Positions 14,480 through 51,042 of a stretch of DNA of 51,374 bases are shown piece after piece; position 1 is the stretch's first letter; every line of letters begins with the position of its first letter. The notes below the pieces were generated by a model, which saw only the letters and a list, made by a program, of their open reading frames with translations, was not told the DNA's origin and ran no database searches. Position numbers and translations under genes: made by a program. Location of the stretch: NCBI GenBank assembly GCA_019661785.1, contig JAIFWP010000004.1, positions 1-51,374 of the forward strand, written 5' to 3'. This DNA comes from Candidatus Parcubacteria bacterium (lineage in GTDB: Bacteria; Patescibacteriota; Minisyncoccia; Phycocordibacterales; Zambryskibacteraceae).

Positions 14480-14555
14480 TTGACAATTAGATTTATAATA
14501 GGTATTGTCACTCCAGAAGCTCAGTATCAAACTATTGCTTACAACCCCATGGAGG
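14480..14555 (+). promoter_or_regulatory. Sigma70-type promoter TTGACA-17-TATTGT with GGAGG SD
   Basis: TTGACA 14480-14485, TATTGT 14503-14508, GGAGG 14551-14555 (4 nt before the ATG). Confidence 0.7.
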
Positions 14556-14559
14556 AGAG

Positions 14560-15426
14560 ATGGACCTCAAGGATTTGAAAACCCAGCGTCTGTTAAATGA
14601 CGCGGTGAGAGCAGGCATGTCTGTCGTTCGAAATTCTCAGGGTGGTCTAATCGATAACCCTGAAATCAAAGACGACAAGACCCTCGTCACCACGACCGAT
14701 CGACTCTCGGAAGAGAAGATCGTCAGCATCATCCGTCAGGAGTTCCCTAACATCCGCATCGTGAGGGAAGAAGGGGCCGAGAGCGGAGACAGCGAGATTG
14801 GGTTGCTGATTGACCCTCTCGACGGGACGCGCGCCTTTGCTAGCGGACTGGCGACGTCGACCGTTATCATCGGAGTCTACGACTTCGTGAAGAAGCAAGT
14901 CGTCGGCTGCGTGATTGGTGAGGCTGCCACAGGTAGAGTGCGGTCAGCTTTCGAGGGTGACAGGACTTTCTTCATGTCACCCATGGATTCGAGCCACGTC
15001 TGGGACGGACCTCTCGACGAGCAGTCGACAGTCTTCCTCGATGTCTCACACGGCTTCAGCCGGAAGGGCCGCCAAATCCTCACCGACGAGCATGTGGCCA
15101 GACTCTTCGGCAGGCTGAACGGCAAGATGAAGCTCGCCATCCCCGGCTCGAATGGTCTCATCCAGTCTCTGGTGGCGAACGGCGGACAGCGGGCAGCAGG
15201 CTCCATCACCACCGCTATCGGCGGTCCATGGGACGTCTGCGGCGTGAAGCTCGTACTGAATGCTGGAGGGTCAGCCAGAGCCTTTTCGACCCAGTGGAGG
15301 AATAGCGGGTGCGCTCTAACAGAGCAAGACCCGCTTGATGTCATGGGCTACGACATCCTCATCTGCGGTAATTCAACGCAGACCGTGAAAACTCTCGTGA
15401 ATGAGCTGATCCAGTGCATTTTCTAG
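14560..15426 (+). CDS. Divergent inositol monophosphatase-family protein (stand-alone cassette)
   Basis: Motifs LVTTTDRLSE, REEG, LIDPLDGT.AF, PWDVCG. Confidence 0.85.
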   Translation: MDLKDLKTQRLLNDAVRAGMSVVRNSQGGLIDNPEIKDDKTLVTTTDRLSEEKIVSIIRQEFPNIRIVREEGAESGDSEIGLLIDPLDGTRAFASGLATSTVIIGVYDFVKKQVVGCVIGEAATGRVRSAFEGDRTFFMSPMDSSHVWDGPLDEQSTVFLDVSHGFSRKGRQILTDEHVARLFGRLNGKMKLAIPGSNGLIQSLVANGGQRAAGSITTAIGGPWDVCGVKLVLNAGGSARAFSTQWRNSGCALTEQDPLDVMGYDILICGNSTQTVKTLVNELIQCIF

Positions 15427-15432
15427 ACAGAT

Positions 15433-15471
15433 GCCCCCGTACACTACACGCGTACGGGGGCGTTCTTATTT
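15433..15471 (+). terminator. Intrinsic terminator
   Basis: GCCCCCGTAC/GTACGGGGGC stem followed by GTTCTTATTT. Confidence 0.75.
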
Positions 15472-15498
15472 AGAAAATCATGCTACAATTTTGGACTT

Positions 15499-16200
15499 AT
15501 GAAGCTGTCAAAGCTTAAAAACCTCATCGGTAGGCGCCTGAATCAGCACTACACCAAGAAGGGCCGCATGGTCGCTATATTTGCCGACCTCAAAGATAGC
15601 GAGGATGCCAAGGGGCTCAGGCTAGTACAAGAGATTAAGGGAGAGACAGACATGCTCTTGAAGCATCAAGAAGCCTTCCTTATATATAAGACTGTGAAGA
15701 AGACCGAGAAGATTGCTGGTGACATAGCCGAGGTCGGCGTCTACAAAGGTGGCTCGGCAAAGCTCATACGCGAGGCTACGAGCAAGACCCTGCACTTGTT
15801 CGACACCTTCGAAGGCCTGCCCGAGACGACCTCCAAGGATAACCAGCAGAAGTTCAAGCAAGGCGAGTTGGCTGCGTCTCTAGAAGGCGTGCAGGACTAT
15901 CTGAAGGGCTACTCGGATGTATATTTCTACAAAGGACTGTTCCCGGAGACGAGCGGCCCCGTAGAGAATAAGAAATTCTCTTTCGTACACCTTGACGTCG
16001 ACTTATACAAATCGACCCTGGACTGCTTGGACTTCTTTTATCCTCGCATGACGACCGGAGGAGTCATCATGAGCCACAACTACCGCGACCTAGTGGGAGT
16101 GAGGAAGGCTTTTGATGAATTCTTCAAAGATAAGCCCGAGATAATCATCGAGCCCTCTGGCACGAGCCAAGCTCTTGTGGTGAAAACTGCTGTTTTATAG
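15499..16200 (+). CDS. TylF/MycF/NovP-family O-methyltransferase
   Basis: Motifs GDIAEVGVYKGGS, LFDTFEGLP, KGLFPET, FVHLDVDLYKST, GGVI. Confidence 0.9.
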   Translation: MKLSKLKNLIGRRLNQHYTKKGRMVAIFADLKDSEDAKGLRLVQEIKGETDMLLKHQEAFLIYKTVKKTEKIAGDIAEVGVYKGGSAKLIREATSKTLHLFDTFEGLPETTSKDNQQKFKQGELAASLEGVQDYLKGYSDVYFYKGLFPETSGPVENKKFSFVHLDVDLYKSTLDCLDFFYPRMTTGGVIMSHNYRDLVGVRKAFDEFFKDKPEIIIEPSGTSQALVVKTAVL

Positions 16201-17778
16201 CTTGCGGAGCACATCGTTCTCCTTGAGAGATCTCCAGAGATTCAACTTTCCATAGTAGTAGAGGAAGTGGTTAAACGGATAATGATGCAGAGGAGCCATG
16301 TTGAGCCAGATGAGGGCCGTGAGCTGGCGAATCTTCCTAGTGTCGTATTTATATTTGCGGATGAAGTCGAAGAAGGTCACTTGGCAGTCCACCAAGGAGC
16401 TTGAGCGCATAATCTCCACGCGAACATTCCTCCCATCAGACTCCACGGTAAACAGGTTGTTGTTGATGACGCCGTGGTTCACTGTCAGGTTGTGGTTCAA
16501 TTTTGCCAAGTCATAGTAGCGATCTCCCCCACGCAGAAGCCCGCCGAAGTCCTGCCGCCAGTCGAGGAGGCAGTAGCCGTAGTCTGTCTTCAAGATATTG
16601 TCGAGTATAAAGTCTCCATGGAACCTCGACTGCAAGCCCTCGAATAGCCTGGCAAAATCCACGAGCTTGAGCACTTCTCTGAGCGCCGGTATCTGCTCTC
16701 CGTTTATAACATGGTCCGTGTCCTTCAAGTCATTGGCTTTCAAGAACTGGTCTATCCTCCTATTGGTCTTATCTACATAAAACGACCTACAAGCCTCCCT
16801 GAACACATCTTCCTTGGCCTCGTTCTCCTCTCTCCAGAAGCTATTCTGCGCCCACTCGAGGAACTTCTTGAAGTCCGTCGGCTGCACTATATGTGAGTAG
16901 AGCTCCCCCGGCACTAACTTATACCTGTAGAAGTTCCCTACTACTCCCTCCATGTCTGGGACGAACCCTTTAAGCATCTTGCCGCGCTCGGCACGGTCTC
17001 TCACTATCTTCTCATCAGAGAAAAACTTAATGACGAACGTATCGAACATGAAAACCGCTTCGCCTGCCTTGTCGAGGTCATCAAGCGAGCTCCCTGCATC
17101 ACGACGTGCAGCCTGCAGAGCAGTAGGATTGCCGATATCATGCCACACAGGGAACTCGGTGAGCTCCATGGGCACACCCTTCTCTATCATCTTGGAGAGG
17201 GTCTGACAGTCGTTTAGCGTCTTGTTGTCTGGATTAGAGGCATACAACTTCCCTAGTTCGTCCCAGAAGGATGCGAAGTCATGAATCCCGACTAAACCGA
17301 TGTGGAGGAAATCGGCATTAATAGCCCCTTTTTCATTGAACTGCAATTTGCCGTCACGCAAGACCCATGAGGCATACTGTGTAGTGTCGCTTCCTTTGTA
17401 TACGCCAATCCAATTCTTGTCCGGCATGGGCACCGGTCCATCGATAAGCGTGTCACACGCATGGAAAATGAAGGGACACTGCAGAGCACTCTTGGCATCA
17501 AGCATAGAGAGGCCGAGGCTCGAGCCTGGACCATCATAATTCTTCACTTCAACATATTCGAAATGTCCTTGCGGATAAGTAAGCGAGAGGAAGTCTCTCA
17601 CCTGTTTGCCGAAGTGCCCTATCGTCACCACGAAGCGAGTATCCTTGGGATACTCCTCGATTATGTGCGAGATGGCCGGCTTCGTGCCTATCCTTACCAA
17701 AGACTTATTGGTGTAGGCAGTAAGAGGACCCAGCCGCGAGCCAATGCCCGAGGTCGTTATGAGGACTTTATGATTCAT
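16195..17778 (-). CDS. Bifunctional nucleotidyltransferase plus APH/choline-kinase-like phosphotransferase
   Basis: N-terminal LITTSGIGSRL...NKSLV, ACD, WHDIGN. C-terminal FHGDFILDNIL, LLDWR, DRYYDLAKL. Confidence 0.85.
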   Translation of the reverse strand: MNHKVLITTSGIGSRLGPLTAYTNKSLVRIGTKPAISHIIEEYPKDTRFVVTIGHFGKQVRDFLSLTYPQGHFEYVEVKNYDGPGSSLGLSMLDAKSALQCPFIFHACDTLIDGPVPMPDKNWIGVYKGSDTTQYASWVLRDGKLQFNEKGAINADFLHIGLVGIHDFASFWDELGKLYASNPDNKTLNDCQTLSKMIEKGVPMELTEFPVWHDIGNPTALQAARRDAGSSLDDLDKAGEAVFMFDTFVIKFFSDEKIVRDRAERGKMLKGFVPDMEGVVGNFYRYKLVPGELYSHIVQPTDFKKFLEWAQNSFWREENEAKEDVFREACRSFYVDKTNRRIDQFLKANDLKDTDHVINGEQIPALREVLKLVDFARLFEGLQSRFHGDFILDNILKTDYGYCLLDWRQDFGGLLRGGDRYYDLAKLNHNLTVNHGVINNNLFTVESDGRNVRVEIMRSSSLVDCQVTFFDFIRKYKYDTRKIRQLTALIWLNMAPLHHYPFNHFLYYYGKLNLWRSLKENDVLRKL

Positions 17779-18470
17779 TGAAGAGTTCCGTCTATGGTCT
17801 TGCGCAAGTCTCTTAGCTTATTCTCAAGCGTATCTTCATGCGGACGATATATAGTTCCGGTACCACAGACTAGCATGCTAGCTCCACGCCTGACCATCTC
17901 AGGAGCGGACTCAGGAGTGACACCGCCATCAATCTCTATTATAACCTCAGTCCTATGCTTGAACTTCTCCCGAGTGTCAGAAATCTTCTGCATCGTCTCA
18001 GGTATTAGCTTCTGTCCCAAGATGCCCGGCTGTATAGCCATGAGCATGACGAGATCAACTTCACCCAGCACCGAGTCCAAGACGCTGAGCGGTGTCTCTG
18101 GCTTCAAAGCAACTCCTACTAACACGCCCTGCCCTTTGATACCTCTAACGGCAGCGGCAATATCTGGGACAGCTTCCGCATGTATGGCTATGAGGTCTGC
18201 ACCTGCTTTAACAAAAAGCGGCACATACTTCTCGGGATTATCTATCATGAGATGTACATCGATTGGGATATCCGTGACAGAGGTTATGGCCTTAAGCATC
18301 TCCGGATAGAGGCCGAGGCGCGGTACGAAGCTCCCATCCATGACATCGAAATGGAGCGAGTCCGCATCCGCTCTCTCAAGTGCTTGCAGCTCGGTTTTGA
18401 GCTCAAGCGGATTGCCGCATATGAGCGACGCGCTAATAAGATAAGGCCTGTCTTTGGAAAACCATTTCAT
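17775..18470 (-). CDS. Ribulose-phosphate 3-epimerase family (Rpe/AlsE-like)
   Basis: Motifs HFDVMDGSFVP, DVHLMI, ALKPETP, IEIDGGV, LVCGT. Substrate uncertain given the glycan-locus context. Confidence 0.9.
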   Translation of the reverse strand: MKWFSKDRPYLISASLICGNPLELKTELQALERADADSLHFDVMDGSFVPRLGLYPEMLKAITSVTDIPIDVHLMIDNPEKYVPLFVKAGADLIAIHAEAVPDIAAAVRGIKGQGVLVGVALKPETPLSVLDSVLGEVDLVMLMAIQPGILGQKLIPETMQKISDTREKFKHRTEVIIEIDGGVTPESAPEMVRRGASMLVCGTGTIYRPHEDTLENKLRDLRKTIDGTLQ

Positions 18471-18479
18471 AAATAGAGT

Positions 18480-19034
18480 TTACTCCAAGTTGGAGTGCCG
18501 TGCCCACATAGTCTCGTGAGTCTCCCCCATCTCTTCCATAAGCCTCAAGACTATGGCGTCGAAGAGTATGCCGAGGCTTTGTTCATTAAGGGTCGTCATC
18601 GGCTGGACCGATTTGAGGCCTTCTACTGCTTTGACCTTGGAGGGCGCAGAGACTTTGACGATGATGTCAGCGAGCTCGCCCATGCGCGACTGAGGATTGC
18701 CAGTGATGAGAGCTACACCAGCACCGTTCTTCTTGGCAATGTTCACTATCTGGTAGATAGTCTCGGTTTCGCCCGAGCCAGACGCGACAAACAAGAGGTC
18801 TCCGTGAGCGACAGAAGGCACCGTAGCATCGCCTACCATATGAGAGGCAAGACCCAAATGCCCTAAGCGCATCGCAAAACCCCTCACAGCCATGCCAACT
18901 CTGCCAGCTCCGACTGAAACGACCTTCTTTGCCTCAGTGATAGCGCTCAATAACTTATCGATTTCGCTATCATCGACCTTCGATAAGACTGTTCGTATCT
19001 CTTCGAGGATAGCTTCTACTTGTTTTTTGGCCAT
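18480..19034 (-). CDS. SIS-domain 6-phospho-3-hexuloisomerase-like protein (HxlB/PHI family)
   Basis: Motifs GAGRVG....FAMRLGHLG, SGSGET, QPMTTL.EQ, C-terminal RHSNLE. Confidence 0.88.
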   Translation of the reverse strand: MAKKQVEAILEEIRTVLSKVDDSEIDKLLSAITEAKKVVSVGAGRVGMAVRGFAMRLGHLGLASHMVGDATVPSVAHGDLLFVASGSGETETIYQIVNIAKKNGAGVALITGNPQSRMGELADIIVKVSAPSKVKAVEGLKSVQPMTTLNEQSLGILFDAIVLRLMEEMGETHETMWARHSNLE

Positions 19035-19511
19035 TTATTTGAAGAATTTATCCTTAATATGCAGACAAGCCTCGGCCACCGCTCCCTCTCCGGCCCTGTG
19101 AGTAGTCACGAAGCTCGCCTTTTCACGAGCTAGGTAGAAGGCGCTTGCCGGCGCGATGCTGTAGGCCACGTGAGCAAAGATGTCGACATCGTGCATGCCG
19201 TCTCCCATATATATAGTCTCAGTGAGATCGAAATTCTTCTTGAACCACTCAAGCCTCTCATCCTCGCTCACAAGGTCAAGCTTGAGCTTCATGTCTTCCG
19301 ACACACGCTTCTGTGTTATATCGAAGCCTCTTCTGTCAGCAGAGATGGCTTGGATGTTCATGAGTCCGCTCAGCATCTTAATGCCGTCGTTGTCATGAGG
19401 TCCAAAGACCTTGGCGAACTTCCCATCCTTCGTATACAAAAATTGTCCTGTAGTCAGGACTCCATCAACGTCTAAAATAAGATTCTTCACGTCTCGTTTT
19501 GGCTTGTCCAT
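19035..19511 (-). CDS. KdsC/YrbI-like HAD phosphatase
   Basis: Motifs LILDVDGVLT.G, YMGDG.HD, GEGAVAE. Start reassigned to ATG 19511 (MDKPKRD). Confidence 0.88.
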   Translation of the reverse strand: MDKPKRDVKNLILDVDGVLTTGQFLYTKDGKFAKVFGPHDNDGIKMLSGLMNIQAISADRRGFDITQKRVSEDMKLKLDLVSEDERLEWFKKNFDLTETIYMGDGMHDVDIFAHVAYSIAPASAFYLAREKASFVTTHRAGEGAVAEACLHIKDKFFK

Positions 19512-19539
19512 TTGTGCTACCATACCATAATACTGGCAT
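19512..19539. promoter_or_regulatory. Back-to-back -10 elements in a 28-bp divergent gap (leaderless-type)
   Basis: Minus strand TGgTATGGT lies 7 nt before ATG 19511. Plus strand CATAAT lies 8 nt before ATG 19540. Confidence 0.55.
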
Positions 19540-20826
19540 ATGCAAAGCCTAAGGAGTAAGTTCATATCACTCTTGCGCAGAGGGGAGCGCATTTTCAAGC
19601 TGGATATGACTTATATAGTCAAAGGCAGCTTCTGGACGACTTTGGCTTTCACCATAGGCACCGTAGCCTCTATTGCTACTGGCATAGCCTTCGGCAACTT
19701 ACTGCCGAAGGAGAGCTATGGTATATACAACTATCTGCTGTCTCTCGGAGCTACCCTCTCCTTCCTCACTCTCTCCGGCACAAGTACCGCAGTGATACGC
19801 GCTGTAGCCCGCGGGTATGAGAATGTCGTCCCGGCAGCGCTCCGCCTACAGCTCAAGTACAACCTCATAGCCATGAGTATGGTGCTCTGCGGCGCAGCTT
19901 ACTATGCTTATAAGGCCAATATGCTGTTTGCCGCGGCGCTCGCGATGCTTGCGTTCGCTTATCCCATCTCTCAAGCCTTCCATATACACTATCAAGTCCT
20001 CACAGGTAGAAAGCGCTTCGATCTCTTAACGAAGATTAGCTGCATCGTTACGCCAATCTCCATGTTCTCGACTTTGGCAGCCTTACTTCTTACGCATAAT
20101 GTGCTTATCCTTATAGCGACCTTCGCCTTTGTCTCTATAGTGTCGAACATCGCTGTATACAAATTCGTCACTAGGGATATCGACAAGTCCACTCCGGACC
20201 CAGAACAGATTAAGGAGATGCGCCGCACCTCCTTCCATCTTACAGGAGCCGGACTCATAGGCACTGCCGCGCAATATATAGACAAGATAGTGCTCTTCCA
20301 TGTCTCCGGCGCTGCGCCGCTCGCTATATACGCCTTCGCCTTGGCCGGACCGGACAGGCTGCAAAGCCTCGTGAAGAACTGGCTCAGCATCGCTCTGCCA
20401 AACTTGGCTCAGAGGACGCTGCCTGAGATACGCCAGGTCGTATATAAGCGCATAGGCTACTCCATGCTCATAGGCGCAGCCCTGTTCTTGGCTTACTTCA
20501 TTGCGGCTCCGTTCCTCTTCAAGCTCCTCTTGCCGCGCTACTTGGATGCGATCTTGTACTCTAGAGTGCAGGCGCTCAGCCTTATCATCATCCCCGCTTC
20601 TATATACATGGGAAGCGTCTTCTCTCAGCAGAATATGCTTCGAGCCACTTACGCCCAAAGCACGGGAAGCCAGGTTATCTACATACTGCTAGTACTCCTC
20701 TTCGGAGCTAAATGGCACATATGGGGTCTTATCGCCGCGTCGCTCCTGTCGACGACAATGAATGCCGTGTACAGCATCATCGTATGGGAAATAGAATCCC
20801 GCCGCCTAATCAAGAAGAATGCCTAA
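19540..20826 (+). CDS. Wzx-type oligosaccharide flippase
   Basis: About 12 TM helices, LLPKESYGIYNY, IDKIVL.......AIY.FA (MOP/PST family pattern). Confidence 0.88.
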   Translation: MQSLRSKFISLLRRGERIFKLDMTYIVKGSFWTTLAFTIGTVASIATGIAFGNLLPKESYGIYNYLLSLGATLSFLTLSGTSTAVIRAVARGYENVVPAALRLQLKYNLIAMSMVLCGAAYYAYKANMLFAAALAMLAFAYPISQAFHIHYQVLTGRKRFDLLTKISCIVTPISMFSTLAALLLTHNVLILIATFAFVSIVSNIAVYKFVTRDIDKSTPDPEQIKEMRRTSFHLTGAGLIGTAAQYIDKIVLFHVSGAAPLAIYAFALAGPDRLQSLVKNWLSIALPNLAQRTLPEIRQVVYKRIGYSMLIGAALFLAYFIAAPFLFKLLLPRYLDAILYSRVQALSLIIIPASIYMGSVFSQQNMLRATYAQSTGSQVIYILLVLLFGAKWHIWGLIAASLLSTTMNAVYSIIVWEIESRRLIKKNA

Positions 20827-24235: not shown

Positions 24236-24236
24236 T

Positions 24237-26102: not shown

Positions 26103-26127
26103 ATATCATGCTAGTATACGCTATAAC

Positions 26128-27405: not shown

Positions 27406-27421
27406 GAGGTATAATGCCTGT

Positions 27422-28375: not shown

Positions 28376-28377
28376 AG

Positions 28378-30418: not shown

Positions 30419-30420
30419 TT

Positions 30421-33788: not shown

Positions 33789-33789
33789 A

Positions 33790-40533: not shown

Positions 40534-40545
40534 AATCTTGAAAAA

Positions 40546-41589: not shown

Positions 41590-42650
41590 CAGACCTAACA
41601 AACATAGCCAATATACTGAGCGGCCTCGGCTACATACTAGACGCAGAACAGCCTCATATAGAGGGGGAGAGATTCCTTATGGCTAAGGAGAAGCTCGTCT
41701 TAGTTGGCACTCGCCAGAAGGATGGTCTCCGGGTAGCAATTAAGATTAGCAACCGCGAGAGCGGCAAGAAGGACATCCGCGACGAGAAGCGCGCCCGCGA
41801 CCTCTTGGAGTCCATATCCTTCGCCGATGGAGCACTCCTCTTCCCTAAAGAGATTTTCTGGGGAGAGAAAGATGGATACCTCATATGGGTTATCGAGTTT
41901 ATCGAGCAGGAGAAGGTCTTCGTGGCTTATACGCTTGAGGAACAGTTCTTCTTTGCTCTCAAGGCCTTTGAGGCGCAAGAGGGCTTCCATGCCACGACTT
42001 ACGAACATCTCGAGACGGTCAAAAAGATCTTCCCCGTACTCTATGGCCAAGACTACTTCAGAGAATTCAGAGAGTATAAAAAGATAGTGGAGGATGCATC
42101 CCTAGACTCTAGCCTTGGAGATACTCTGAGTCGGGCCGAGGAGATGCTTCTTTCTCACAAGAGCGACATAGACGATTATGCGAACTACCTTACTCACACT
42201 GACTTTGTCCCGCACAACTTCCGAATTAGGAAAAACCTGGTCTACATCCTCGACTGCGCCCCTGAGTATCGTACGGTCCATTTCGGCAATAAGTATGAGG
42301 GATGGGCCAGATTCTTAAACTACATGGTCATACATAACCCGAGCCTCGAGCGCCTCTTGGCTAGGTACATTCGAGACAACCGCGGAATGAAGGACTTTCT
42401 CAACTTGCGGCTCATGCGAGCTTATAAGATAGGTTTCCTCCTTAAGTTCTATGCCGAGTCACTCGCAAACACATCGGGTGATTTGCGCACTCTCACCCTA
42501 GAACGCATCGACTTTTGGCACGAGATACTCAAATATGTGCTCGATGATAGAGAGATACCCGAAGACTTCGTCGAAAGATATAAGAAGAAGCGAGACGCCC
42601 TAAGGAGCGAGGAAGAGAAGAAGCGCCAGCGCGAGTTCGCAGTGGCTTAA
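41586..42650 (+). CDS. APH/choline-kinase-fold phosphotransferase-like protein, paralog 2
   Basis: Motifs VAIK, YLTHTDFVPHNFR, YILD. Collinear with paralog 1 over its full length. Confidence 0.75.
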   Translation: MTDLTNIANILSGLGYILDAEQPHIEGERFLMAKEKLVLVGTRQKDGLRVAIKISNRESGKKDIRDEKRARDLLESISFADGALLFPKEIFWGEKDGYLIWVIEFIEQEKVFVAYTLEEQFFFALKAFEAQEGFHATTYEHLETVKKIFPVLYGQDYFREFREYKKIVEDASLDSSLGDTLSRAEEMLLSHKSDIDDYANYLTHTDFVPHNFRIRKNLVYILDCAPEYRTVHFGNKYEGWARFLNYMVIHNPSLERLLARYIRDNRGMKDFLNLRLMRAYKIGFLLKFYAESLANTSGDLRTLTLERIDFWHEILKYVLDDREIPEDFVERYKKKRDALRSEEEKKRQREFAVA

Positions 42651-43420
42651 AGAGCAGCTCTTAAGGCGCTTAGTATTTCTTGATTATTTGCTGCTATAAG
42701 TATTTGGGGGACTTTTGACATTGGATCAAGAGCACCCGACTTCCCCTCAGCCAGACCCCCGGCTTCCTCTAAAATACCGATAGCCGCAATGACATCAATG
42801 GTTGTAAGATTCGCGTATATACAAGCCTCAGATCTACCTGCTGCAACAGAACATATATCGAGCCCAGAAGACGCTATACCTCTGACCGAGTGAGAATATT
42901 CTAGCAGGAAGCGATACATTTTTGTCCCCCACTCCCATTGCTCCTGATTCCGCCCTGTAGTCAGAAAGATAGTGGACTCTTTCAATTCAGTCTTGTTCGA
43001 GACATGGATGGGAATCTGATTAAGAAAAGCTCCTCGACCCCTCTCAAAACTATATAGCTCCTTAGTAATTGGGTTATAGACTGCTCCTACTGAAGCCTTG
43101 TCTTTTTCTACATAAGCAATGACGACTGAGAACATGGGAAATCCTCTAACGAAATTCTTCGTTCCGTCTATCGGGTCAATGGCCCAGAAAGAGCCGCTTG
43201 AGATATCATCATCAGCCTCTTCAGAGTAAATCTTCTCTCCAGGAAAGCTCTCACCTATCCTCTGAGATATGAACTGGCTTACCTCAATGTCCACATTAGT
43301 TACCAGGTCTCTGGGGTCGTTGTTCTTTATTGATATGTCGACATGCTTCTCTCTGGCTTGAAGCACTTTCTCCCCAGCCTCCTTAGCCAAGGCCACCACA
43401 AAGTCGTACCTGTTTTGCAT
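42647..43420 (-). CDS. Inositol monophosphatase (SuhB-like)
   Basis: Motifs DLVTNVD, SEE, WAIDPIDGTKNF, D.IAA..ILEEAGG. Start ATG 43420 lies 6 nt after TGcTATAGT. Confidence 0.9.
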   Translation of the reverse strand: MQNRYDFVVALAKEAGEKVLQAREKHVDISIKNNDPRDLVTNVDIEVSQFISQRIGESFPGEKIYSEEADDDISSGSFWAIDPIDGTKNFVRGFPMFSVVIAYVEKDKASVGAVYNPITKELYSFERGRGAFLNQIPIHVSNKTELKESTIFLTTGRNQEQWEWGTKMYRFLLEYSHSVRGIASSGLDICSVAAGRSEACIYANLTTIDVIAAIGILEEAGGLAEGKSGALDPMSKVPQILIAANNQEILSALRAAL

Positions 43421-43437
43421 GGGGCCACTATAGCACA

Positions 43438-43470
43438 AGAAAAGGGCGCCACCGTCTGAGGTGGCGCCCT
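43438..43470 (-). terminator. Intrinsic terminator of the 137-aa cassette gene
   Basis: AGGGCGCCACC/GGTGGCGCCCT 11-bp stem with a U-tract on the minus strand. Confidence 0.85.
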
Positions 43471-43485
43471 GTTGGAACACGGAGA

Positions 43486-43899
43486 TCAGCGACTGCGGTC
43501 TGCCGACGTCGCGACTCGCGTCTTCGGCCGATCATCGAGCAGAAGATCAGCCTTGTACGGCAGCTCCTGCCGCTTCCTCATGAAGAGTTCGAAGGCTTTC
43601 GCTCCCTCTTTGGTGTGAAGACCTCCAACCATGTTATTCGTCATCCAAATCAGGTCTTCCTGTGTACGGGCAAGCTCGACCATCTTCGGGTACATGGCGA
43701 CGTCGAACTCGTTCTGCACTTCACGCAGCGCATGACCTTCCTCACGGAAGCCATTGATGTGACGAGATCCTTCATCGAAGTTCTTCGTCACACTCGCGAC
43801 GTAGCGATAGCCGCGGATGCGCTGCGCCTTGTCGAAGAACGGCCGGATGGTCCAGCCAAGAATGGTGGCGGCGAAACCAACAATGAATGTGGTGATCAT
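43486..43899 (-). CDS. Hypothetical protein with N-terminal TM/signal anchor (stand-alone cassette)
   Basis: Has its own promoter, AGGAGG SD and terminator, and a hydrophobic N-terminus. No recognisable family. Confidence 0.75.
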   Translation of the reverse strand: MITTFIVGFAATILGWTIRPFFDKAQRIRGYRYVASVTKNFDEGSRHINGFREEGHALREVQNEFDVAMYPKMVELARTQEDLIWMTNNMVGGLHTKEGAKAFELFMRKRQELPYKADLLLDDRPKTRVATSADRSR

Positions 43900-43903
43900 G
43901 GAG

Positions 43904-43962
43904 CCTCCTGGCTCTATTGATTGTCTACCTTAAATCATACACCCAAAATGATACTTTGTCAA
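43904..43962 (-). promoter_or_regulatory. Sigma70-type promoter TTGACA-17-TATGAT with AGGAGG SD
   Basis: TTGACA 43962-43957, TATGAT 43939-43934, AGGAGG 43909-43904. Confidence 0.8.
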
Positions 43963-43971
43963 TAGGAGATT

Positions 43972-45096: not shown

Positions 45097-46810
45097 TGAG
45101 TATCGCCTTCAACTCTTCGGGAGTTGGCTCTTTCTTCTTGTACTGTGGATTGTCCTGGGTAGCCTTTGGCGGAGCAGGAGGTTGACTCGGCGAAACTTTA
45201 GCTATATTAGCCAGAGCGCTCTTGAGATCACTCACATTCTTCTGTGAAGCAGGACGCTGGTTGTTCGAGCTCTCCTTTAACTTGTCGAGTGATATGGACT
45301 TGATAGGTGTGAATCCTGCGTCATCCTGAGGTATGTCTGGCTTTGGCACCGGTCTAGGCGCAGATGGTGGTGGAGATACTTGAGCAACTGGACGAGGCGC
45401 GTAGGCGGGCTTCGGAGTATACGCTCTCTCAGTTTGCCTTCTCGGTTCCACGCGGCGCTCAGGTTCATATCTCCTCTTTGGGAAAGGGTCACTCGGCATC
45501 GGAGCTTTGGTTGCGGTCTTGCCCTGGTCATGCCAATCCTGTATCACCTTCTCGACCTCGGCCTTTGGGTGAGCATAGGTCCTGCGCGACTGGCGGATAA
45601 TCTCGTCGACATGCGAGGCCTCAGCAGGCTTAATAGGCGGTAGTGTCGTAGCGGAGAAGGGCTGCGACGTCACATCGTCTATCATGAGCTTCAAGCATAT
45701 CTGACGAAGACCTAGGTTCACCAAGTCCTCGGCAGTAAATACCGGAGCAAACTCCTTCTCGAGCACCTCAGCATCATAAGCACCGACGCGGAAGGTTATC
45801 ATAGTGCCCACGTTGCCGAAGACGGCATCGCGCACCTCCTCCTCCATCTGCTCGATGTACTGGTGGGCCATGGTGAGGTTCAACTTATATTTGCGAGCCT
45901 CGGATAGGATATCGGCGAAGGACTTGTCGGCGAAGGACTGGAACTCATCCACATGGAGATAAAGGTTGGGTAGCTTCTGCAAGACCTCCTTCGGCTCGTC
46001 GGCGCGGCTCATGGCTGCGAGATAAATCTTCGTGATAAGCATCGAGCCCAAGAGTCTGGCATTACCCTCGCCGACACGGCCCTTGGAGAGGTTCACTATC
46101 ATGATCTTCTGCGTATCCATAATCTGTCGCAAGTCGAAAGAGGACTTGGGTTGGCCGATGATATTACGTATAAGAGGATTGCCGGCGAACTGGCCTATCT
46201 TGTTTTGTATAGCTGGGGTAGCTTCCTGAGCGTATTTGTCGGTGTATTTGGCATACTCCTCAGTCCAGAAGCTCTTAACCGAGACGTCCGTAACATTGTC
46301 GACCACCTTGAGGCGGAACTCCTTGTCCGTATACATGCGGTTCACCGCGAGGAGTGTTGCGCCTGGGTACTCGAGGAGAGCGAGGAGGGTGTTCTGCAAG
46401 ATGTAGGCCATGCGGGCTGACCAGGCGTCCTCCCAGATCTTCTCGAAGACGGACATGAGGCCATTCACCACAAGGTGCCTTTTGTCTGCACCGACATCCT
46501 CCATGATGTTGAAGGCTATAGGGTTGTCCATGTCGAAGGGCGCGAAGTAGATGACATCTTTAATACGGCTCTCGGGTACATACTCAAGGAGCTTCTCGGC
46601 GGTGCCGCCGTGCGGGTCGATGAAGACGATACCTTCCCCGCTCTGGATGTCCTGGATAGCCATGTTCTCAAGAAGCGTGGACTTACCCATACCGGTCTTA
46701 CCAATGACATAGACGTGCTTGGAGCGGTCCCTGGCCTTGATGCCAAAGGATACGTGCTTATTACGGGAGTCAGTCTCGCCGAAGTATGTAATCTTCTCCG
46801 GATTGTACAT
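45089..46810 (-). CDS. Type IV secretion coupling protein-like (VirD4/TraD/HerA-like) ATPase with Pro-rich C-terminal tail
   Basis: Motifs DRSKHVYVIGKTGMGKS (Walker A), FIDPHG, LHVDEFQSF (Walker B), LSEARKY, AHQY, GNVGT. Confidence 0.88.
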   Translation of the reverse strand: MYNPEKITYFGETDSRNKHVSFGIKARDRSKHVYVIGKTGMGKSTLLENMAIQDIQSGEGIVFIDPHGGTAEKLLEYVPESRIKDVIYFAPFDMDNPIAFNIMEDVGADKRHLVVNGLMSVFEKIWEDAWSARMAYILQNTLLALLEYPGATLLAVNRMYTDKEFRLKVVDNVTDVSVKSFWTEEYAKYTDKYAQEATPAIQNKIGQFAGNPLIRNIIGQPKSSFDLRQIMDTQKIMIVNLSKGRVGEGNARLLGSMLITKIYLAAMSRADEPKEVLQKLPNLYLHVDEFQSFADKSFADILSEARKYKLNLTMAHQYIEQMEEEVRDAVFGNVGTMITFRVGAYDAEVLEKEFAPVFTAEDLVNLGLRQICLKLMIDDVTSQPFSATTLPPIKPAEASHVDEIIRQSRRTYAHPKAEVEKVIQDWHDQGKTATKAPMPSDPFPKRRYEPERRVEPRRQTERAYTPKPAYAPRPVAQVSPPPSAPRPVPKPDIPQDDAGFTPIKSISLDKLKESSNNQRPASQKNVSDLKSALANIAKVSPSQPPAPPKATQDNPQYKKKEPTPEELKAILNG

Positions 46811-46842
46811 TTGCCTTATTTTACAACAAAATCAGCGAAGAG

Positions 46843-48003
46843 TCAGTTCGGTAAGTAGGCTTTTTGCGTATATTTGTTCGAGGCGTCCCAGGAGAGCCAG
46901 GAGGTGAGCCCTACGTCGTATGTGGCGCGCATCTGAGCTTGTACCTCAGGCACACCATAAGCGACTCCTAAGAGCTTGAAGTCTTGTATCCAAGGGCGGA
47001 GCTTAGAGGGAGTAGATGAGGCAATGCCCATGATGGCGTTGAGAGCCTGTTCCTTCCTCACTCCGCTTGCCATGGAGTACTGGATGATCTCGTATGGATG
47101 CTCAGCCGGGCTCGCATAACCGTCAGCCCCCGAGGCAAAGTGTGATGGATATACCATGGGGTCAATATAGTCGAAGTATGGCAAGGCCTTCTCCAAGACT
47201 TGGCCTATGCCCATATCATCATTAACTAAGGTCGAGAGGCCGAAGAGGTCTGCGGAAGTCTTCATACCCGAGCCCAGCAAGTGGTCATGGAGGTAGGAGA
47301 AGAAGCTCTCAAGCATCTCGGACTTGGTTGAGCTCGCAACGGTCCATGTATAAGAAGCGTCCTTCATATTGCCGTCAGACGGATAGCGCACGTAGTCGAA
47401 GTTTATCTCATCAAAGCCGAGACCATAGCTCCTCTTAGCAAGCTCCACTATATAGTCCCAGTAAGGCCTTGCGCCGACGTCGATGAAGGCGAGCCCCTTA
47501 TGGTCGTGCCACACTCCCCCGCTCTTAGACTGCACGGCTAGGTCTGGATGAAGCTTCGCATATGAAGGGTCCTGGAAGACAGTTACGCGGCCAATAGCAT
47601 AGATGCCGCTCTTGTGGAGCTCGCCTATGTACTCTTTCAAATCTCTGACGTAGCAGTTGGCGCCCGGCTCGAAGGATATAGAACCTGAATAGTCTTTGAC
47701 ATCAATAACGATGGAGTTCAACTCCGTCTCCTCGACGAATTTCTTCAAGCTCTCGCGCCATGACGGAGTGGCGGCCACGCAGGCTGTCATATATATAGCC
47801 TTGGTCGGCTCAGGCGTGGGCACATGGGTGACGACGAAGGTCGCGGCGCTAGTCGTGGCTACTGGCGAAGCTATGAGCGTCTCAGCCGAGGACTCGTAGC
47901 TCTTCTTCAAGACGAGAGGCAGGACGAAAATTATGAGACAGCCGAAGAGGACCGCCGAAGCCGCCCAGGAAAAAGTCTTCTTACTGGAGCGGGGCTTCTT
48001 CAT
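46843..48003 (-). CDS. Putative glycoside hydrolase (DUF4015-like), membrane-anchored
   Basis: Motifs NSIVIDVKD, GRVTVFQD, GFDEINFDYVRYP, SADLFG, PMVYPSH, LRPWIQDF. Confidence 0.8.
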   Translation of the reverse strand: MKKPRSSKKTFSWAASAVLFGCLIIFVLPLVLKKSYESSAETLIASPVATTSAATFVVTHVPTPEPTKAIYMTACVAATPSWRESLKKFVEETELNSIVIDVKDYSGSISFEPGANCYVRDLKEYIGELHKSGIYAIGRVTVFQDPSYAKLHPDLAVQSKSGGVWHDHKGLAFIDVGARPYWDYIVELAKRSYGLGFDEINFDYVRYPSDGNMKDASYTWTVASSTKSEMLESFFSYLHDHLLGSGMKTSADLFGLSTLVNDDMGIGQVLEKALPYFDYIDPMVYPSHFASGADGYASPAEHPYEIIQYSMASGVRKEQALNAIMGIASSTPSKLRPWIQDFKLLGVAYGVPEVQAQMRATYDVGLTSWLSWDASNKYTQKAYLPN

Positions 48004-48250
48004 TTGTGGTATTAAGGCTCGGTTCCTCCATGGGCATATCGGGGCGTGTCTTGGCTCGTCTGGTAGCTAGGCGCCTCTCGGCCTTGACCTTCAAGGACAG
48101 GCGCTTGTCGATAGCTATGAGCACAGAGAGACAGACAATGCCTAAGCCTCCAACTATCTCGAAGAAGGATTCCCAAGCGTGCGGGAAGCCGAGCACAGGC
48201 AAGAGAGCGATGAAAAGTCCTATGGCAAGTATGATTCTACTCTTTGGCAT
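47981..48250 (-). CDS. Small two-TM membrane protein
   Basis: Two hydrophobic helices (ALLPVLGFP..W). Overlaps its neighbours in operon fashion. Confidence 0.75.
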   Translation of the reverse strand: MPKSRIILAIGLFIALLPVLGFPHAWESFFEIVGGLGIVCLSVLIAIDKRLSLKVKAERRLATRRAKTRPDMPMEEPSLNTTNEEAPLQ

Positions 48251-48848
48251 GGTGTTCTTTGCTCCGAGTATTATACACGATGAAGAAGACTACTACACCG
48301 ATAATAAATGTGGAGAAGAGAAGATGTTGCGCCGACTGGATGGCTGCTATGACCGCGGCGACGCGAGTATGGAAAATGTACCCAATGAAGGCGTAGAAGG
48401 GTCCATAGGCCAGGGCTGATATAAGCGTATATAGAGTGAATTTCTTCCAAGGCATCTGGGTCACCCCAGCAATAATCGGGTTCATGAAGCGCCAGCCAGG
48501 GATAAAGTGCGAGAAGAATACGAGAGCGAAGAGGTGCCTCTCTTCAGCTCGCTCATATCTGCCACGGAGGGCATGGCTTGCCCCCTTGGAGAACTTCATA
48601 GCAAGCTCGCTCCCAGAGAGGGAGAGAGTGTACATGATGAGGTCAACGAAGACGGTGGTGAAAATGCCCACAGCGAGCACTGCCCAGATCTTCACCTTGC
48701 CTAGCGCTGACAGGTAGCCCAAGAGGATGAGTACGACGGACTCGGGCACTGGCACCACATGTCCGCTCGACAGGAGCACCAGGAACATCTTCCAGTAAGT
48801 GAGGTGGCTTAGGAACTCGAGATTATGGGCGAAGGAGGTTAAGTGCAT
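48237..48848 (-). CDS. DedA family protein
   Basis: Motifs PVPESVVLILLGY, D...Y, FIPG.R....IAG...MPWKKF. Confidence 0.85.
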   Translation of the reverse strand: MHLTSFAHNLEFLSHLTYWKMFLVLLSSGHVVPVPESVVLILLGYLSALGKVKIWAVLAVGIFTTVFVDLIMYTLSLSGSELAMKFSKGASHALRGRYERAEERHLFALVFFSHFIPGWRFMNPIIAGVTQMPWKKFTLYTLISALAYGPFYAFIGYIFHTRVAAVIAAIQSAQHLLFSTFIIGVVVFFIVYNTRSKEHHAKE

Positions 48849-49700
48849 TTATTTACCGTATATGCCCTCAAGTATATCTGCATCCTTGCCGCTATCACGG
48901 AGCAGGGCGTTGTTCTTGTCGCGGATAGACTCAAGCACCTTTAGGCCTACTTCGTCCTGAACATGCTCTTTGTGGAACTGGAGAAGAGCCTCAAAGTCCT
49001 TGGGGAAGCAATGTCCGCCCGCCCCGCGCCCTGTCGAGCGCTCTGAGGTATGCACAGGCTGCATGTGAGAGGTACCAATGCGAGAGTCGTGGGAAACGGC
49101 CTCGCTCACCTTGGCCCAGTCTGCGTCAATTTTCTCAGCAATGTCATACATAAGATTCATGAATATGACTTTAGTGTAGAGGAAGTTGTTGCCAATATAC
49201 TTAACCAGCTCAGACTCTTTGGATAGAAGAACTTTCTCATACGGAGCCTTGGGCAAAACGCTTAGTACGAGCTCGGCCTTCTGCCTCAACTCCTCTGTGT
49301 CCCTTGGCACGCCAATGATGTTCCTCTCTGGATGCTTAGTGTCCTCCTTGGCAGTCTTCGCTACCAAGAACTCTGGGGAATGCAGTACGAATATATCTGG
49401 GTTCTCTGCTTGTAGGAGCTCGGTAGTGCCGGGAAGGATAGTGGACTTGATGACGACAATCTTGTCCTTGCCCACGAGCTTGATTTCATTTCTAAGTATC
49501 GAGAAGTCGAACCCCTCTGGCCTAGTTGGAGTTGGTACCGCCACGAAGACGATATCCGCCTCCTTAACCCTATCCTTATTGCCCACATACTCAGGCTCAA
49601 GAGCGTAGCGGATAGTGTCATATCCTCGCTCAGTGAAATCATCGGCCAAATTCTTGCCGACGAAACCCTGTCCGATGAATCCTATGGTCAGTTTACTCAT
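48849..49700 (-). CDS. UDP-glucose/GDP-mannose dehydrogenase family, short form lacking the C-terminal UDP-binding domain
   Basis: Motifs GQGFVG, FVAVPTP, KSTILPGT, PEFL, SELVKY..N, catalytic GAGGHCFPKD. The protein ends at 283 aa. Confidence 0.88.
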   Translation of the reverse strand: MSKLTIGFIGQGFVGKNLADDFTERGYDTIRYALEPEYVGNKDRVKEADIVFVAVPTPTRPEGFDFSILRNEIKLVGKDKIVVIKSTILPGTTELLQAENPDIFVLHSPEFLVAKTAKEDTKHPERNIIGVPRDTEELRQKAELVLSVLPKAPYEKVLLSKESELVKYIGNNFLYTKVIFMNLMYDIAEKIDADWAKVSEAVSHDSRIGTSHMQPVHTSERSTGRGAGGHCFPKDFEALLQFHKEHVQDEVGLKVLESIRDKNNALLRDSGKDADILEGIYGK

Positions 49701-49729
49701 TAGTTCGGTTATTGTATCATGCAGGCAAC

Positions 49730-49805
49730 GCGCGTGTAGCTCAGCTGGTAGAGCAATCGACTGATACTCGGTAGGTCCCAGGTTCGACCCCTGGCACGCG
49801 CACCA
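49730..49805 (+). tRNA. tRNA-Ile(GAU)
   Basis: GCGCGTG/CACGCGC acceptor stem, GCTC/GAGC D-stem, ATCGA-CT-GAT-AC-TCGGT anticodon arm, CCAGG-TTCGACC-CCTGG T-arm, A73 and encoded CCA; 76 nt. Confidence 0.95.
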
Positions 49806-49810
49806 AATGG

Positions 49811-49843
49811 AAATGCCAGCTCCTGACTGAGAGCTGGCATTTT
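49811..49843. terminator. Bidirectional terminator between the tRNA and the small membrane ORF
   Basis: AAATGCCAGCTC/GAGCTGGCATTT stem. Confidence 0.85.
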
Positions 49844-49856
49844 GCGCGAGGCGCGG

Positions 49857-50057
49857 CTAGCGGAAGAAGTACGTCGCGATCTGGGGCCCAAAGATGATGC
49901 TGAGCCCCACGAGGACAGCGATGCCAACGCCAAGCCAGATGTTCCTGGTCGACTTCTGTTCGACGATCGTCTTGTGCGGTGCAGGATGCACGGCAGCCTG
50001 CTGCCACCGCGCCTTGCTTGGACGATTCCGCTCAGATCTGCCATCAATTGTTCCCAA
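49857..50057 (-). CDS. Small membrane protein, 66 aa, C-terminal TM (cassette)
   Basis: AGGAGG (50068-50063) lies 5 nt before a TTG start. TM IWLGVGIAVLVGLSIIFG. Flanked by a putative promoter and a terminator. Confidence 0.6.
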   Translation of the reverse strand: MGTIDGRSERNRPSKARWQQAAVHPAPHKTIVEQKSTRNIWLGVGIAVLVGLSIIFGPQIATYFFR

Positions 50058-50087
50058 GTTCCCCTCCTAGGGACGAGTTCTAGCCCC

Positions 50088-50115
50088 AATCTACGCTTCT
50101 CTATATTTTTTGCAA
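50088..50115 (-). promoter_or_regulatory. Putative promoter TTGCAA-16-TAGATT
   Basis: Directly follows a terminator and has the same layout as 50372-50399. Confidence 0.5.
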
Positions 50116-50118
50116 ACG

Positions 50119-50148
50119 AAAAGGCCCTGTATCGAAACACAGAGCCTT
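50119..50148 (-). terminator. Intrinsic terminator with UUCG loop
   Basis: AAGGCUCUGUGU-UUCG-AUACAGGGCCUU-UU. The G-U pairs form only on the minus strand. Confidence 0.8.
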
Positions 50149-50163
50149 GACCAAAATAACTGG

Positions 50164-50331
50164 TCAAACGCAAAGCATTGCGCAGCCGCCGCCGAAGAAC
50201 CAGCGAGCGGCGAAGAACAGGAGAATCAGGAGGATACTAGTCCCTATTGCGAGTATGGGAGGACTCGTCCAAATGGTCCGCCCCCACGGGTTACTGCGAG
50301 GTCCTGGACCGCCGATAGTTCCGCCTGCCAT
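50164..50331 (-). CDS. Small membrane protein, 55 aa (cassette)
   Basis: GGAGG (50340-50336) lies 4 nt before ATG 50331. Sequence MAGGTIGGPGPRSNPWGRTIWTSPPILAIGTSILLILLFFAARWFFGGGCAMLCV. Confidence 0.6.
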   Translation of the reverse strand: MAGGTIGGPGPRSNPWGRTIWTSPPILAIGTSILLILLFFAARWFFGGGCAMLCV

Positions 50332-50371
50332 GTGCCCTCCAAAGAGTAGGAAGCATTCATAATCTAAACTC

Positions 50372-50399
50372 ACCCTACTCTTCCCCCAACTTTTTGCAA
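50372..50399 (-). promoter_or_regulatory. Putative promoter TTGCAA-16-TAGGGT
   Basis: Directly follows terminator 50403-50434 and parallels 50088-50115. Confidence 0.45.
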
Positions 50400-50402
50400 A
50401 TG

Positions 50403-50434
50403 AAAAAGGGCGGGAGTTTTTTGACTCCCGCCCT
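50403..50434 (-). terminator. Intrinsic terminator of the lipoprotein gene
   Basis: AGGGCGGGAGT/ACTCCCGCCCT stem with a U-tract on the minus strand. Confidence 0.85.
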
Positions 50435-50453
50435 CGTAACCCCGTGCGATACC

Positions 50454-50969
50454 CTACTTGGCGTAATCGCACTCCATGAACGACTTGCACGGCCCAGGCG
50501 TCATCCCGTCAGGGTAGACCTCCGAGAAGCCGATGAAGCCCGGACTGACAGCCGGCCAGTTCGGCGCGTTGTCGGGTCCGTGAATGTGCAGGTAGATCCA
50601 GAGCGTCTTGTCGGTCGAGTTGTGACGGACCGTGAAGGAGCTGTGGCGTCCATCTGCGTACCGGACGTACAGGCGGAACTTCGCCATTCGCCGACTCGGC
50701 GCCTTGATCAAGAGGTGAGAGTTTGAGGATTCGCTCTCGACATCTCCGAACGTACCGCGTGCGCACTCTCCGAGAGTGTCGCAGATACTCACTCGAGCAT
50801 TGGCGAAGGCCTGGTTCCCGGTGTAGACCAGAAACGAATCAGGACTCACCGGACGGACCACCACGCCCTTCACGACGGGAACCGTCGCCTTCGGCGCATC
50901 CTTCTGGTCTGCCTTCTGGCTCGGCGCGCAGGCCACAAGGGCAAGCAACGCCAGGATGTTCATCCTCAT
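50454..50969 (-). CDS. Hypothetical lipoprotein (cassette)
   Basis: MRMNILALLALVA-C lipobox-type signal, own promoter and terminator, GC3-rich codons. Confidence 0.75.
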   Translation of the reverse strand: MRMNILALLALVACAPSQKADQKDAPKATVPVVKGVVVRPVSPDSFLVYTGNQAFANARVSICDTLGECARGTFGDVESESSNSHLLIKAPSRRMAKFRLYVRYADGRHSSFTVRHNSTDKTLWIYLHIHGPDNAPNWPAVSPGFIGFSEVYPDGMTPGPCKSFMECDYAK

Positions 50970-51014
50970 TGGAAATCCCTTGAATCTGGTTGACGATATG
51001 CAATCTCTTCTTCT

Positions 51015-51042
51015 ATTATATCATATATAAGTATACTGTCAA
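51015..51042 (-). promoter_or_regulatory. Consensus sigma70 promoter TTGACA-16-TATAAT (with TGn)
   Basis: TTGACA 51042-51037 and TATAAT 51020-51015, upstream of the lipoprotein gene. Confidence 0.8.

Follow-up and report, generated by a model that had tools for sequence, protein, structure and literature searches.

Shine-Dalgarno-led, ATA-avoiding single-gene cassettes in a Parcubacteria genome without anti-Shine-Dalgarno sequence: probable horizontal acquisition with relic donor signals

Contig JAIFWP010000004.1 of the Candidatus Parcubacteria bacterium assembly GCA_019661785.1, analyzed here over its full length of 51,374 nucleotides (nt) and called the window, harbors five self-contained single-gene units. 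Most of them carry a Shine-Dalgarno (SD) motif and avoid the isoleucine codon ATA, in a genome whose 16S rRNA lacks the anti-SD sequence. An initial annotation had proposed that such units are maintained for expression by the machinery of another cell, and had named recent horizontal transfer as a simpler alternative. The analysis reported here favors transfer: the units form part of a minority class of genes, found throughout the genome, that probably entered as single-gene cassettes. The window is contig C3 in its entirety, from a genome (G000) of 545 kb in 6 contigs, with approximately 52% GC and 95% complete. It was compared with 40 relatives, including the unpublished G018, which gave 'no match' rows only. 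The genus is deep, with a median identity of 61% between core orthologs and genome GC contents of 0.39-0.53.

All five units are present where they had been described, and promoter-like sites and hairpin terminators were located for each of them, including the three perfect TTGACA hexamers reported initially. The unit on the forward strand starts with the promoter TTGACA-17-TATTGT (14480-14508), which precedes a gene for a 288-aa protein of the inositol monophosphatase (IMPase) family (14560-15426, +; Pfam PF00459, 78.5 bits for a cut-off of 27). GGAGG lies at 14551-14555, 4 nt before the ATG. The gene has a GC content of 0.57, with a value of 0.70 at third codon positions (GC3), and none of its 21 Ile codons is ATA. 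Residues D85, D88, G89 and T90 of the protein are invariant in 22 sequences; they belong to a DPxDGT motif, the conserved metal-binding motif of inositol monophosphatases. The gene is followed by a terminator-like hairpin, cccccgtac-N9-gtacggggg with a T-rich tail (15434-15471, +), which was identified by eye, as its 9-nt loop exceeds the 8-nt limit of the hairpin scan. This IMPase-like gene is the only one of its type within a variable block of resident-type codon usage (ATA 30-60%). The block, some 20 kb long (13433-33983), is missing from the syntenic contigs of G002, G003, G004 and G007, and it may represent a variable surface-glycan cluster.

The second unit (43486-43899, -) encodes a 137-aa orphan with an N-terminal hydrophobic segment (GC 0.56, ATA 0/7). 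It is preceded by the promoter TTGACA-17-TATGAT (43934-43962, -) and by AGGAGG at 43909-43904, 4 nt from the ATG. Its terminator (43443-43470, -) lies inside the mechanically called open reading frame (ORF) 42647-43480, whose GTG start at 43480 overlaps it; the real start of that ORF is probably the ATG at 43420. The corresponding gene (42647-43420, -) is a resident IMPase-family paralog with orthologs in G002 and G007, an ATA content of 11/24 and a GC3 of 0.47. A TATAGT box (43427-43432) is found 6 nt before its ATG, an arrangement of the leaderless type.

The three remaining units occupy the slot between the 16S rRNA gene and a tRNA-Ile gene. Its upstream edge is the intrinsic terminator that follows the 16S trailer (agccccgcaaggggc and a T tract, read by eye; 51067-51092, -), and its downstream edge is tRNA-Ile(GAU) (49730-49805, +). 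The first unit of the slot has a consensus promoter, TTGACA-16-TATAAT (51015-51042, -; 12/12 matches), and encodes a putative lipoprotein of 171 aa (50454-50969, -) whose signal peptide ends in LVAC and which matched no Pfam family. This gene has a GC content of 0.61, a GC3 of 0.79 and no ATA among 6 Ile codons, and it is the only one of the five units without an SD, the sequence upstream of its start being caagggatttccaATG. Its terminator is a 12-pair stem (50406-50435, -). The next gene (50164-50331, -) codes for a 55-aa protein with one C-terminal hydrophobic segment, and it is the exception to ATA avoidance (2/6). GGAGG at 50340-50336 is separated from its ATG by 4 nt, and its terminator lies at 50121-50148 (-). 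The last gene (49857-50057, -) encodes a small tail-anchored membrane protein of 66 aa (ATA 0/7), with AGGAGG at 50068-50063, 5 nt before a TTG start, and a terminator hairpin with a 12-bp stem (49811-49842, -). G002 holds a similar unit at the same place. The promoters of these two small genes form a 44-nt direct repeat on the reverse strand: copy 1, TTGCAAAAA ... TAGATT, lies at 50079-50122, and copy 2, TTGCAAAAA ... TAGGGT, at 50363-50406. As the two modules are 73% identical over 44 nt, the probable origin of the two genes is a unit that was duplicated in tandem.

Upstream of the slot, the 16S rRNA gene is cut by the end of the contig, and its last 129 nt remain (51246-51374, -; Rfam RF00177, 83.4 bits, model positions 1391-1533). 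The tail past helix 45 reads GGAGUAAUUCAAUU; the usual bacterial sequence at that position is GGAUCACCUCCUUA. As had been noted initially, the fragment contains no CCUCC. It is the sole 16S 3' end in the whole assembly, although an Rfam search of the whole genome overlooked even this piece. The loss is not particular to this genome. Among the 41 genomes, 19 gave a 16S sequence, from the same genus to the same order, and none of the 18 distinct tails contains CCUCC; all of them share the pattern GGAnUnnUUC(A/C)A. In full-length 16S sequences, no CCUCC is conserved anywhere across the order, and one near position 150 is a genus-level feature that is missing in G038, G034 and G035. Loss of the anti-SD is already published for part of the Parcubacteria, a subgroup that lacks uL1 (Tsurumaki et al., 2022, RNA 28:1041, PMC9297842). 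The genome analyzed here resembles that subgroup as the accessible part of the report describes it, in its small size and in the absence of CCUCC(U) from the 16S 3' end, and no uL1 (PF00687) was found in this 95%-complete genome. The same part of the report describes the loss and mentions no SD-led gene subset, leaderless promoters or ATA usage. In the genome behind locus L128 (G044), a 1.1-Mb bin, two 16S genes were found, one with and one without a canonical anti-SD; this is probably a mixed bin.

Other ways of reading an SD were sought in the genome. A second 16S rRNA or a trans-acting anti-SD was rejected, as the assembly holds one 16S 3' end only; the initial annotation had named an anti-SD-bearing 16S elsewhere in the genome as a finding that would speak against it, and none turned up. 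The genome contains one extended anti-SD-like 11-mer, ATCACCTCCTT, which initially seemed enriched in the genus, with 29 matches where the reversed control gave 12. It was rejected as a trans-acting anti-SD because it corresponds to the antisense of a conserved 23S segment and to a conserved coding site. The source of this false lead is the conserved 23S sequence AAGGAGGUGAU, which complements the canonical anti-SD exactly; the 23S gene itself is split over contig ends (G000:C6:1-1153, -, and the end of C5). Alternative SD sequences that would match the new tail (GAATT, TGAAT, TTGAA, AATTG and ATTAC) are not concentrated at any position before start codons. The 16S gene is not followed by 23S. 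Instead, a conserved trailer, GAGUCGAUAU ..., GAACGGARCAAAAUAGAGAACGAUA, leads to its own terminator (window 51093-51245, with the same region in L003, L004, L006, L007, L012, L013 and L018), an arrangement of trailer plus terminator that is kept in genus members. The tRNA-Ile gene is inverted relative to 16S in this genome and in G002.

The units are not confined to the window. Among the 604 genes called in the genome, a class of approximately 35-55 combines GGAGG at 4-6 nt upstream of the start with a near absence of ATA, a higher GC3, a leader, and its own promoter and terminator. GGAGG at this distance from the start of the longest ORF was found for 22 of the 604 genes, where internal in-frame start codons predict about 3, and 29 genes with at least 6 Ile codons have no ATA at all, for 4.8 expected. 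ATA accounts for 0.19 of the Ile codons in 35 SD-led genes and for 0.385 in the remaining 569. A five-base SD-like motif (GGAGG, AGGAG or close variants, 3-10 nt before the start) precedes 22 of 44 low-ATA genes and 31 of 477 others (Fisher p=7e-13). The claim that resident genes are rich in ATA is borne out by a genome mean of 38% of Ile codons, in a genome of 52% GC. A tRNA-Ile(UAU) gene lies outside the window (G000:C6:159463-159537), only two tRNA-CAU genes are present, and no match to TilS (PF01171) was found in the genome; ATA is read by tRNA-Ile(UAU).

Most genes, in contrast, display a T/A pattern at positions -12, -11 and -7 upstream of the start, which is a -10 box positioned for leaderless transcripts. 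Such a box (TAnnnT ending 4-10 nt before the start) was found for 172 of 477 ordinary genes and 5 of 44 low-ATA genes. It is nearly exclusive of the five-base motif, occurring in 1 of the 53 genes with that motif and in 176 of the 468 without. The fact that about one third of resident genes have a -10 box so close to their start suggests that leaderless mRNAs represent their main initiation mode. Besides the TATAGT of the IMPase-family paralog described above, an example in the window is TACAAT (15483-15488), 10 nt before the ATG at 15499. The coexistence of two expression dialects, for which the initial annotation had proposed a genome-wide check, is therefore upheld, with SD, promoter geometry, ATA usage and GC3 correlated across the genome. 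The leaders of the class are G-poor and C/A-rich both here and in G007, and several of its promoters are near consensus. Two further candidate marks were discarded. A genome-specific tuning of SD spacing (a peak at 7-9 nt here and a scatter across 5-11 nt in G007, counted from the A of GGAGG) was too unclear, and open start regions do not distinguish the class, since folding is weaker at the start than inside the gene in all genes alike.

The split is sharper in the relative G007 (GC 0.43-0.44), where the distribution of GC3 among genes is bimodal. There, 36 of 494 genes have a GC3 of at least 0.65, with a mean of 0.74 vs. 0.43 for the rest, and their GC1 and GC2 are also raised. ATA represents 14 of 441 Ile codons in this class (3%) and 3455 of 9508 elsewhere. 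Scored in G007 as a core of GGAG or GAGG at 4-10 nt upstream of the start, the SD precedes 19 of the 36 class genes and 24 of the 458 others, and the leaderless-type -10 box is found in 3 of 36 vs. 194 of 458. The class genes stand singly or in pairs among core genes, even within ribosomal-protein operons. The relative synonymous codon usage of the class is much alike in the two genomes (r=0.91, vs. 0.05 for their resident genes), a likeness that is partly circular, as the class is defined by GC and ATA. At the same spot between rplE and rpsN/rpsH, the two genomes carry different GC-rich, ATA-free genes (G000:C6:141892-142689 and G007:C2:196236-197776), and further such genes are found between fusA and tuf in G007.

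The class is accessory, with almost every gene restricted to its own species. No reciprocal best hit was found for 35 of the 36 class genes of G007 and for 27 of 33 in this genome, and neither the IMPase-like gene nor the 137-aa orphan has an ortholog in the 40 relatives. The five-base motif precedes the gene of this genome in 11 of 284 ortholog pairs, and the G007 partner carries a GGAG or GAGG core in 0 of these 11. Where a Pfam scan of the class proteins of this genome gave families, they were IMPase, DUF2225, a purC-purE fusion, a purM-like protein, guanylate kinase, SPFH, Clp_N, radical SAM, STAS and an L28-like tail. The notion that the products are mostly orphan membrane proteins or lipoproteins fits four of the five window units but does not extend to the genome, since membrane proteins are not enriched in the class (13/39 vs. 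220/565 here, and 13/36 vs. 168/465 in G007). A 399-aa lipoprotein of the class has look-alikes in Bacteroidota sugar-binding or GH130-like clusters (score 0.95), which is a lead only.

As to origins, most homolog matches carry no taxonomy. Closer similarity to distant taxa was found for one gene only, the purC-purE fusion (G000:C2:46309-47661), which is 62-72% identical to its 119 best non-self hits among the matches listed. Of the 13 matches with an organism name, 12 are proteins from metagenome-assembled genomes (MAGs) of Verrucomicrobiota type, and the fusion is at least as close to these proteins as core orthologs are to each other within the genus (median 61%). G007 also has a GC-rich, ATA-poor purine gene, a purC (G007:C1:80400-81356) that is 30% identical to the fusion, and a purM-like gene adjoins 23S in this genome, which suggests that nucleotide-synthesis genes were imported repeatedly.

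The IMPase-like gene is a member of a patchy Patescibacteria family. Its nearest homologs are at most 63% identical, and those with names belong to Patescibacteria, Kaiserbacteria, Parcubacteria and Brennerbacteria, the best named Patescibacteria matches being 42-51% identical. A single-protein scan of species genome contigs gave no close relative, and among the best 80 loci of an alignment-based scan, 4 were real relatives and 76 generic IMPases. Three of these four have GGAGG or GGGAG 5-7 nt before the candidate start. One homolog lies in G041, whose 16S rRNA carries a normal GGATCACCTCCTT anti-SD; its GC content is 0.53 vs. 0.37 for its flanks, and GGAGG stands 5 nt before its ATG. This copy is thus foreign-looking and SD-led in a cell able to read the SD. 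The initial annotation had suggested that homologs restricted to the candidate phyla radiation (CPR) and keeping their SD would speak for selection. Such homologs do exist for the IMPase-like gene, but as at least one of them resides in an anti-SD-bearing genome, SD retention provides no evidence for selection in a cell that lacks the anti-SD.

The SD frequency of the class falls as GC3 nears the resident value, and these are signs of decay. Among G007 genes without ortholog in this genome, the GGAG/GAGG core is found in 16 of 27 at a GC3 of 0.70 or more, in 2 of 17 at 0.55-0.65 and in 6 of 166 below 0.55, while ATA climbs from 0.02 to 0.39 across the same range. In G004, a 5'-truncated copy of the window lipoprotein gene (L015:980-1230, -) adjoins the downstream side of the 16S terminator, with 76% identity over 71 aa and a GC content of 0.57 in a locus of 0.41. 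That a broken copy is still this similar points to a common source younger than the split between the species. An ORF of G004 at 46216-46683 that had been taken for the lipoprotein homolog proved wrong, the true match being this truncated remnant nearer to 16S.

Taken together, the five units are best explained, with fair though not full assurance, as accessory cassettes of one gene each that were acquired horizontally and still bear relic signals of their donors. The alternative that the initial annotation had called the simpler one is thereby favored by the distribution, composition, decay and donor evidence; composition and codon usage deviate from the resident genes, and the phyletic distribution is patchy. 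A cassette would begin with a promoter and a short leader poor in G, continue with the SD and the ORF, and close with a terminator. The donors would be SD-using, GC-richer and ATA-avoiding bacteria: other Patescibacteria in the case of the IMPase-like gene, Verrucomicrobiota-like bacteria in that of the purC-purE fusion. The recipient lineage has lost the anti-SD and appears to rely mostly on leaderless initiation, with abundant ATA read by tRNA-Ile(UAU). Entry may occur by DNA uptake, ComEC being present in the genome, followed by recombination at a few permissive intergenic slots, one of them just after the 16S terminator. In the recipient, translation would be SD-independent, on weakly structured leaders. 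Turnover of the cassettes would be fast, the SD being a relic that decays along with the foreign codon usage.

A number of observations weigh against this explanation or soften it. Most class proteins are orphans, and no donor was recognized for them: 30 of the 45 class proteins scanned here have no Pfam family, a single homolog other than itself (55% identity) was found for the window lipoprotein among 5.8 billion proteins, and the 137-aa orphan has 5 weak relatives (30-49% identity) among 1.84 billion representatives. Signatures of mobility are wanting too. In agreement with the initial annotation, no flanking direct repeats were detected around three loci. No integrase turned up, the integron integrase family not having been among those searched for. 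Three scans of viral contigs gave no viral relatives, and a viral origin is rejected. Gene calls and start choices, 604 genes in all, come from a simple home-made caller, and some of the 'no ortholog' calls are false, as the comparison covered 438 of the approximately 600 kb of G007.

The slot after the 16S terminator furnishes the other counterpoints. Across genus members it holds 0 to 3 small SD-led genes, and small SD-led genes for single-pass membrane proteins were found there in G002, G003, G005, G010, G014, G019, G004 and G033. The slot proteins of G005 and G019 have a motif in common, and the G003 protein resembles a second G019 protein. In neither pair is any part of the leader better conserved than the SD block and a few bases beside it. 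Over 14 slot genes, ATA makes up 3 of 70 Ile codons, and it is still rare (1/34) in those with a GC3 of 0.44-0.57. This pattern could reflect selection on the SD and on ATA avoidance in a cell without anti-SD; it could equally reflect recent exchange of cassettes via the highly conserved rRNA and tRNA flanks.

The first of these two possibilities leads to a rival view, which we hold to be unlikely: that the SD is still functional without an anti-SD, being read by some other part of the rRNA, by a ribosomal protein or by an RNA-binding factor, and that the class consists of native, leadered, fast-evolving genes that selection keeps GC-rich and ATA-free. The very sharp 4-6-nt spacing of GGAGG and the G-poor, C/A-rich leaders of both genomes accord with it, as do the recurrence of small SD-led membrane genes in the slot of the eight genomes named above, the conserved SD blocks in leaders of genes whose coding parts align poorly, and the scarcity of ATA in slot genes even at a GC3 of 0.57 or less. 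However, the slot list was built by motif search, which makes its count of 13 of 14 genes with an SD partly circular, and the conserved pairs may result from recent cassette exchange, as the truncated G004 copy suggests. No CCUCC in full-length 16S rRNA is conserved across the order that might serve as an alternative site, no core ortholog pair has an SD-like motif in both genomes (0/284), and the frequency of the SD drops with GC3. In addition, the window lipoprotein unit has lost its SD or never had one, and the class is not enriched in membrane proteins. The narrower proposition that GGAGG 4-6 nt before the start is kept by selection in leadered genes of this anti-SD-less order appears a shade less probable still. 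If it were true, SD recognition would not use the canonical 16S tail, or the SD would have a second role, such as mRNA protection or factor binding.

It is much less probable that the class represents very highly expressed resident genes, in which translational selection against slow ATA codons favors codons ending in C or G. Ribosomal-protein regions are indeed poorer in ATA (24-25% vs. 36-39% genome-wide), the low-ATA genes include those of S12, L3, L21 and HU, and several class promoters are near consensus. Nevertheless, ribosomal-protein genes have no SD, and it is a few of the low-ATA genes lacking it that encode ribosomal proteins and HU. The GC3 of ribosomal-protein regions is raised by only 0.03, whereas the G007 class reaches 0.74 against 0.43 with 3% ATA. 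The class genes are, moreover, species-specific.

The proposal of the initial annotation, that the cassettes are maintained for expression by host-cell machinery after delivery of DNA or mRNA, finds no support and is highly improbable. It drew on the inability of the SD to pair with the resident 16S tail and on the four window units whose products are membrane proteins, lipoproteins or orphans, and the codon dialect shared by the classes of the two genomes, partly forced by their definition, would agree with it. On the other hand, the class comprises cytoplasmic, housekeeping-type enzymes useful to the cell itself (the purC-purE fusion, purM-like protein, guanylate kinase and IMPase-family protein). 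Its genes are single and scattered over all contigs rather than gathered in a transferable block, and the best match to the VirB4 family, at 17.3 bits, is below the cut-off. The class is not conserved between species, and its SD decays with composition, down to a truncated copy in a relative. The IMPase-like family has its high GC content and its SD also in a genome whose anti-SD is normal, and lipoprotein and signal sequences imply export from the producing cell. Finally, an assembly or binning artefact bringing in GC-rich genes of another organism, to which a 6-contig draft with a 16S gene cut at a contig end might lend itself, is the least probable of all, as class genes lie inside long contigs with core genes on both sides, also in independently assembled relatives, including the 258-kb and 288-kb contigs of G007.

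If the class is imported, the combination of an SD motif, avoidance of ATA and a leadered mRNA is a very clean marker of imported genes in such genomes. Two natural experiments would follow, one on the rate at which an unreadable translation signal decays and the other on the expression of foreign genes by a ribosome unable to dock on them. Ultra-small episymbiont genomes would then keep acquiring single self-contained genes at a few slots, nucleotide-synthesis genes among them. Should the SD still be under selection, the system would bear on the long-standing question of SD roles beyond pairing with 16S rRNA. An SD-led, ATA-avoiding imported class in anti-SD-less genomes was not found in full-text literature searches.

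Several known systems share features with the one described here. With respect to SD-dependent initiation, GGAGG at a fixed short distance from the start is present, and the complementary CCUCC is absent from 16S rRNA. Translation in Bacteroidota is SD-poor, and the anti-SD sequence is retained. The genome analyzed here is similar in that most genes have no SD and initiation is SD-independent; it differs in that the anti-SD has been mutated away and that many genes are leaderless. In Mycoplasma mobile and a few other bacteria, ATA is decoded by a tRNA-Ile(UAU) in the absence of TilS. A tRNA-Ile(UAU), two tRNA-CAU genes and no PF01171 match are found here as well, with the difference of a very heavy use of ATA in a genome of 52% GC. 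T-DNA-like transfer involves type IV machinery and a bordered block, neither of which was recognized in this genome. Integron cassettes have attC sites and an integrase and lack their own promoters, whereas the present units have promoters and no shared flanking repeat. Phage morons are promoter-gene-terminator units whose GC content differs from that of the phage genes between which they lie. The present units resemble them in their self-contained anatomy and compositional contrast but reside among core genes of a cellular chromosome, and they are not morons in that sense. Horizontally acquired genes in genomic islets have an atypical composition and a patchy distribution, and they ameliorate over time. 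The units differ from these in that each comprises one gene, with a promoter and a terminator of its own, and not a multigene island, in that no tRNA-att site or flanking repeat was seen, and in having an SD that cannot pair with the recipient rRNA. They share with them a higher GC and GC3, foreign codon usage, species-specific occurrence, one gene close to distant taxa, and a gradient of composition.

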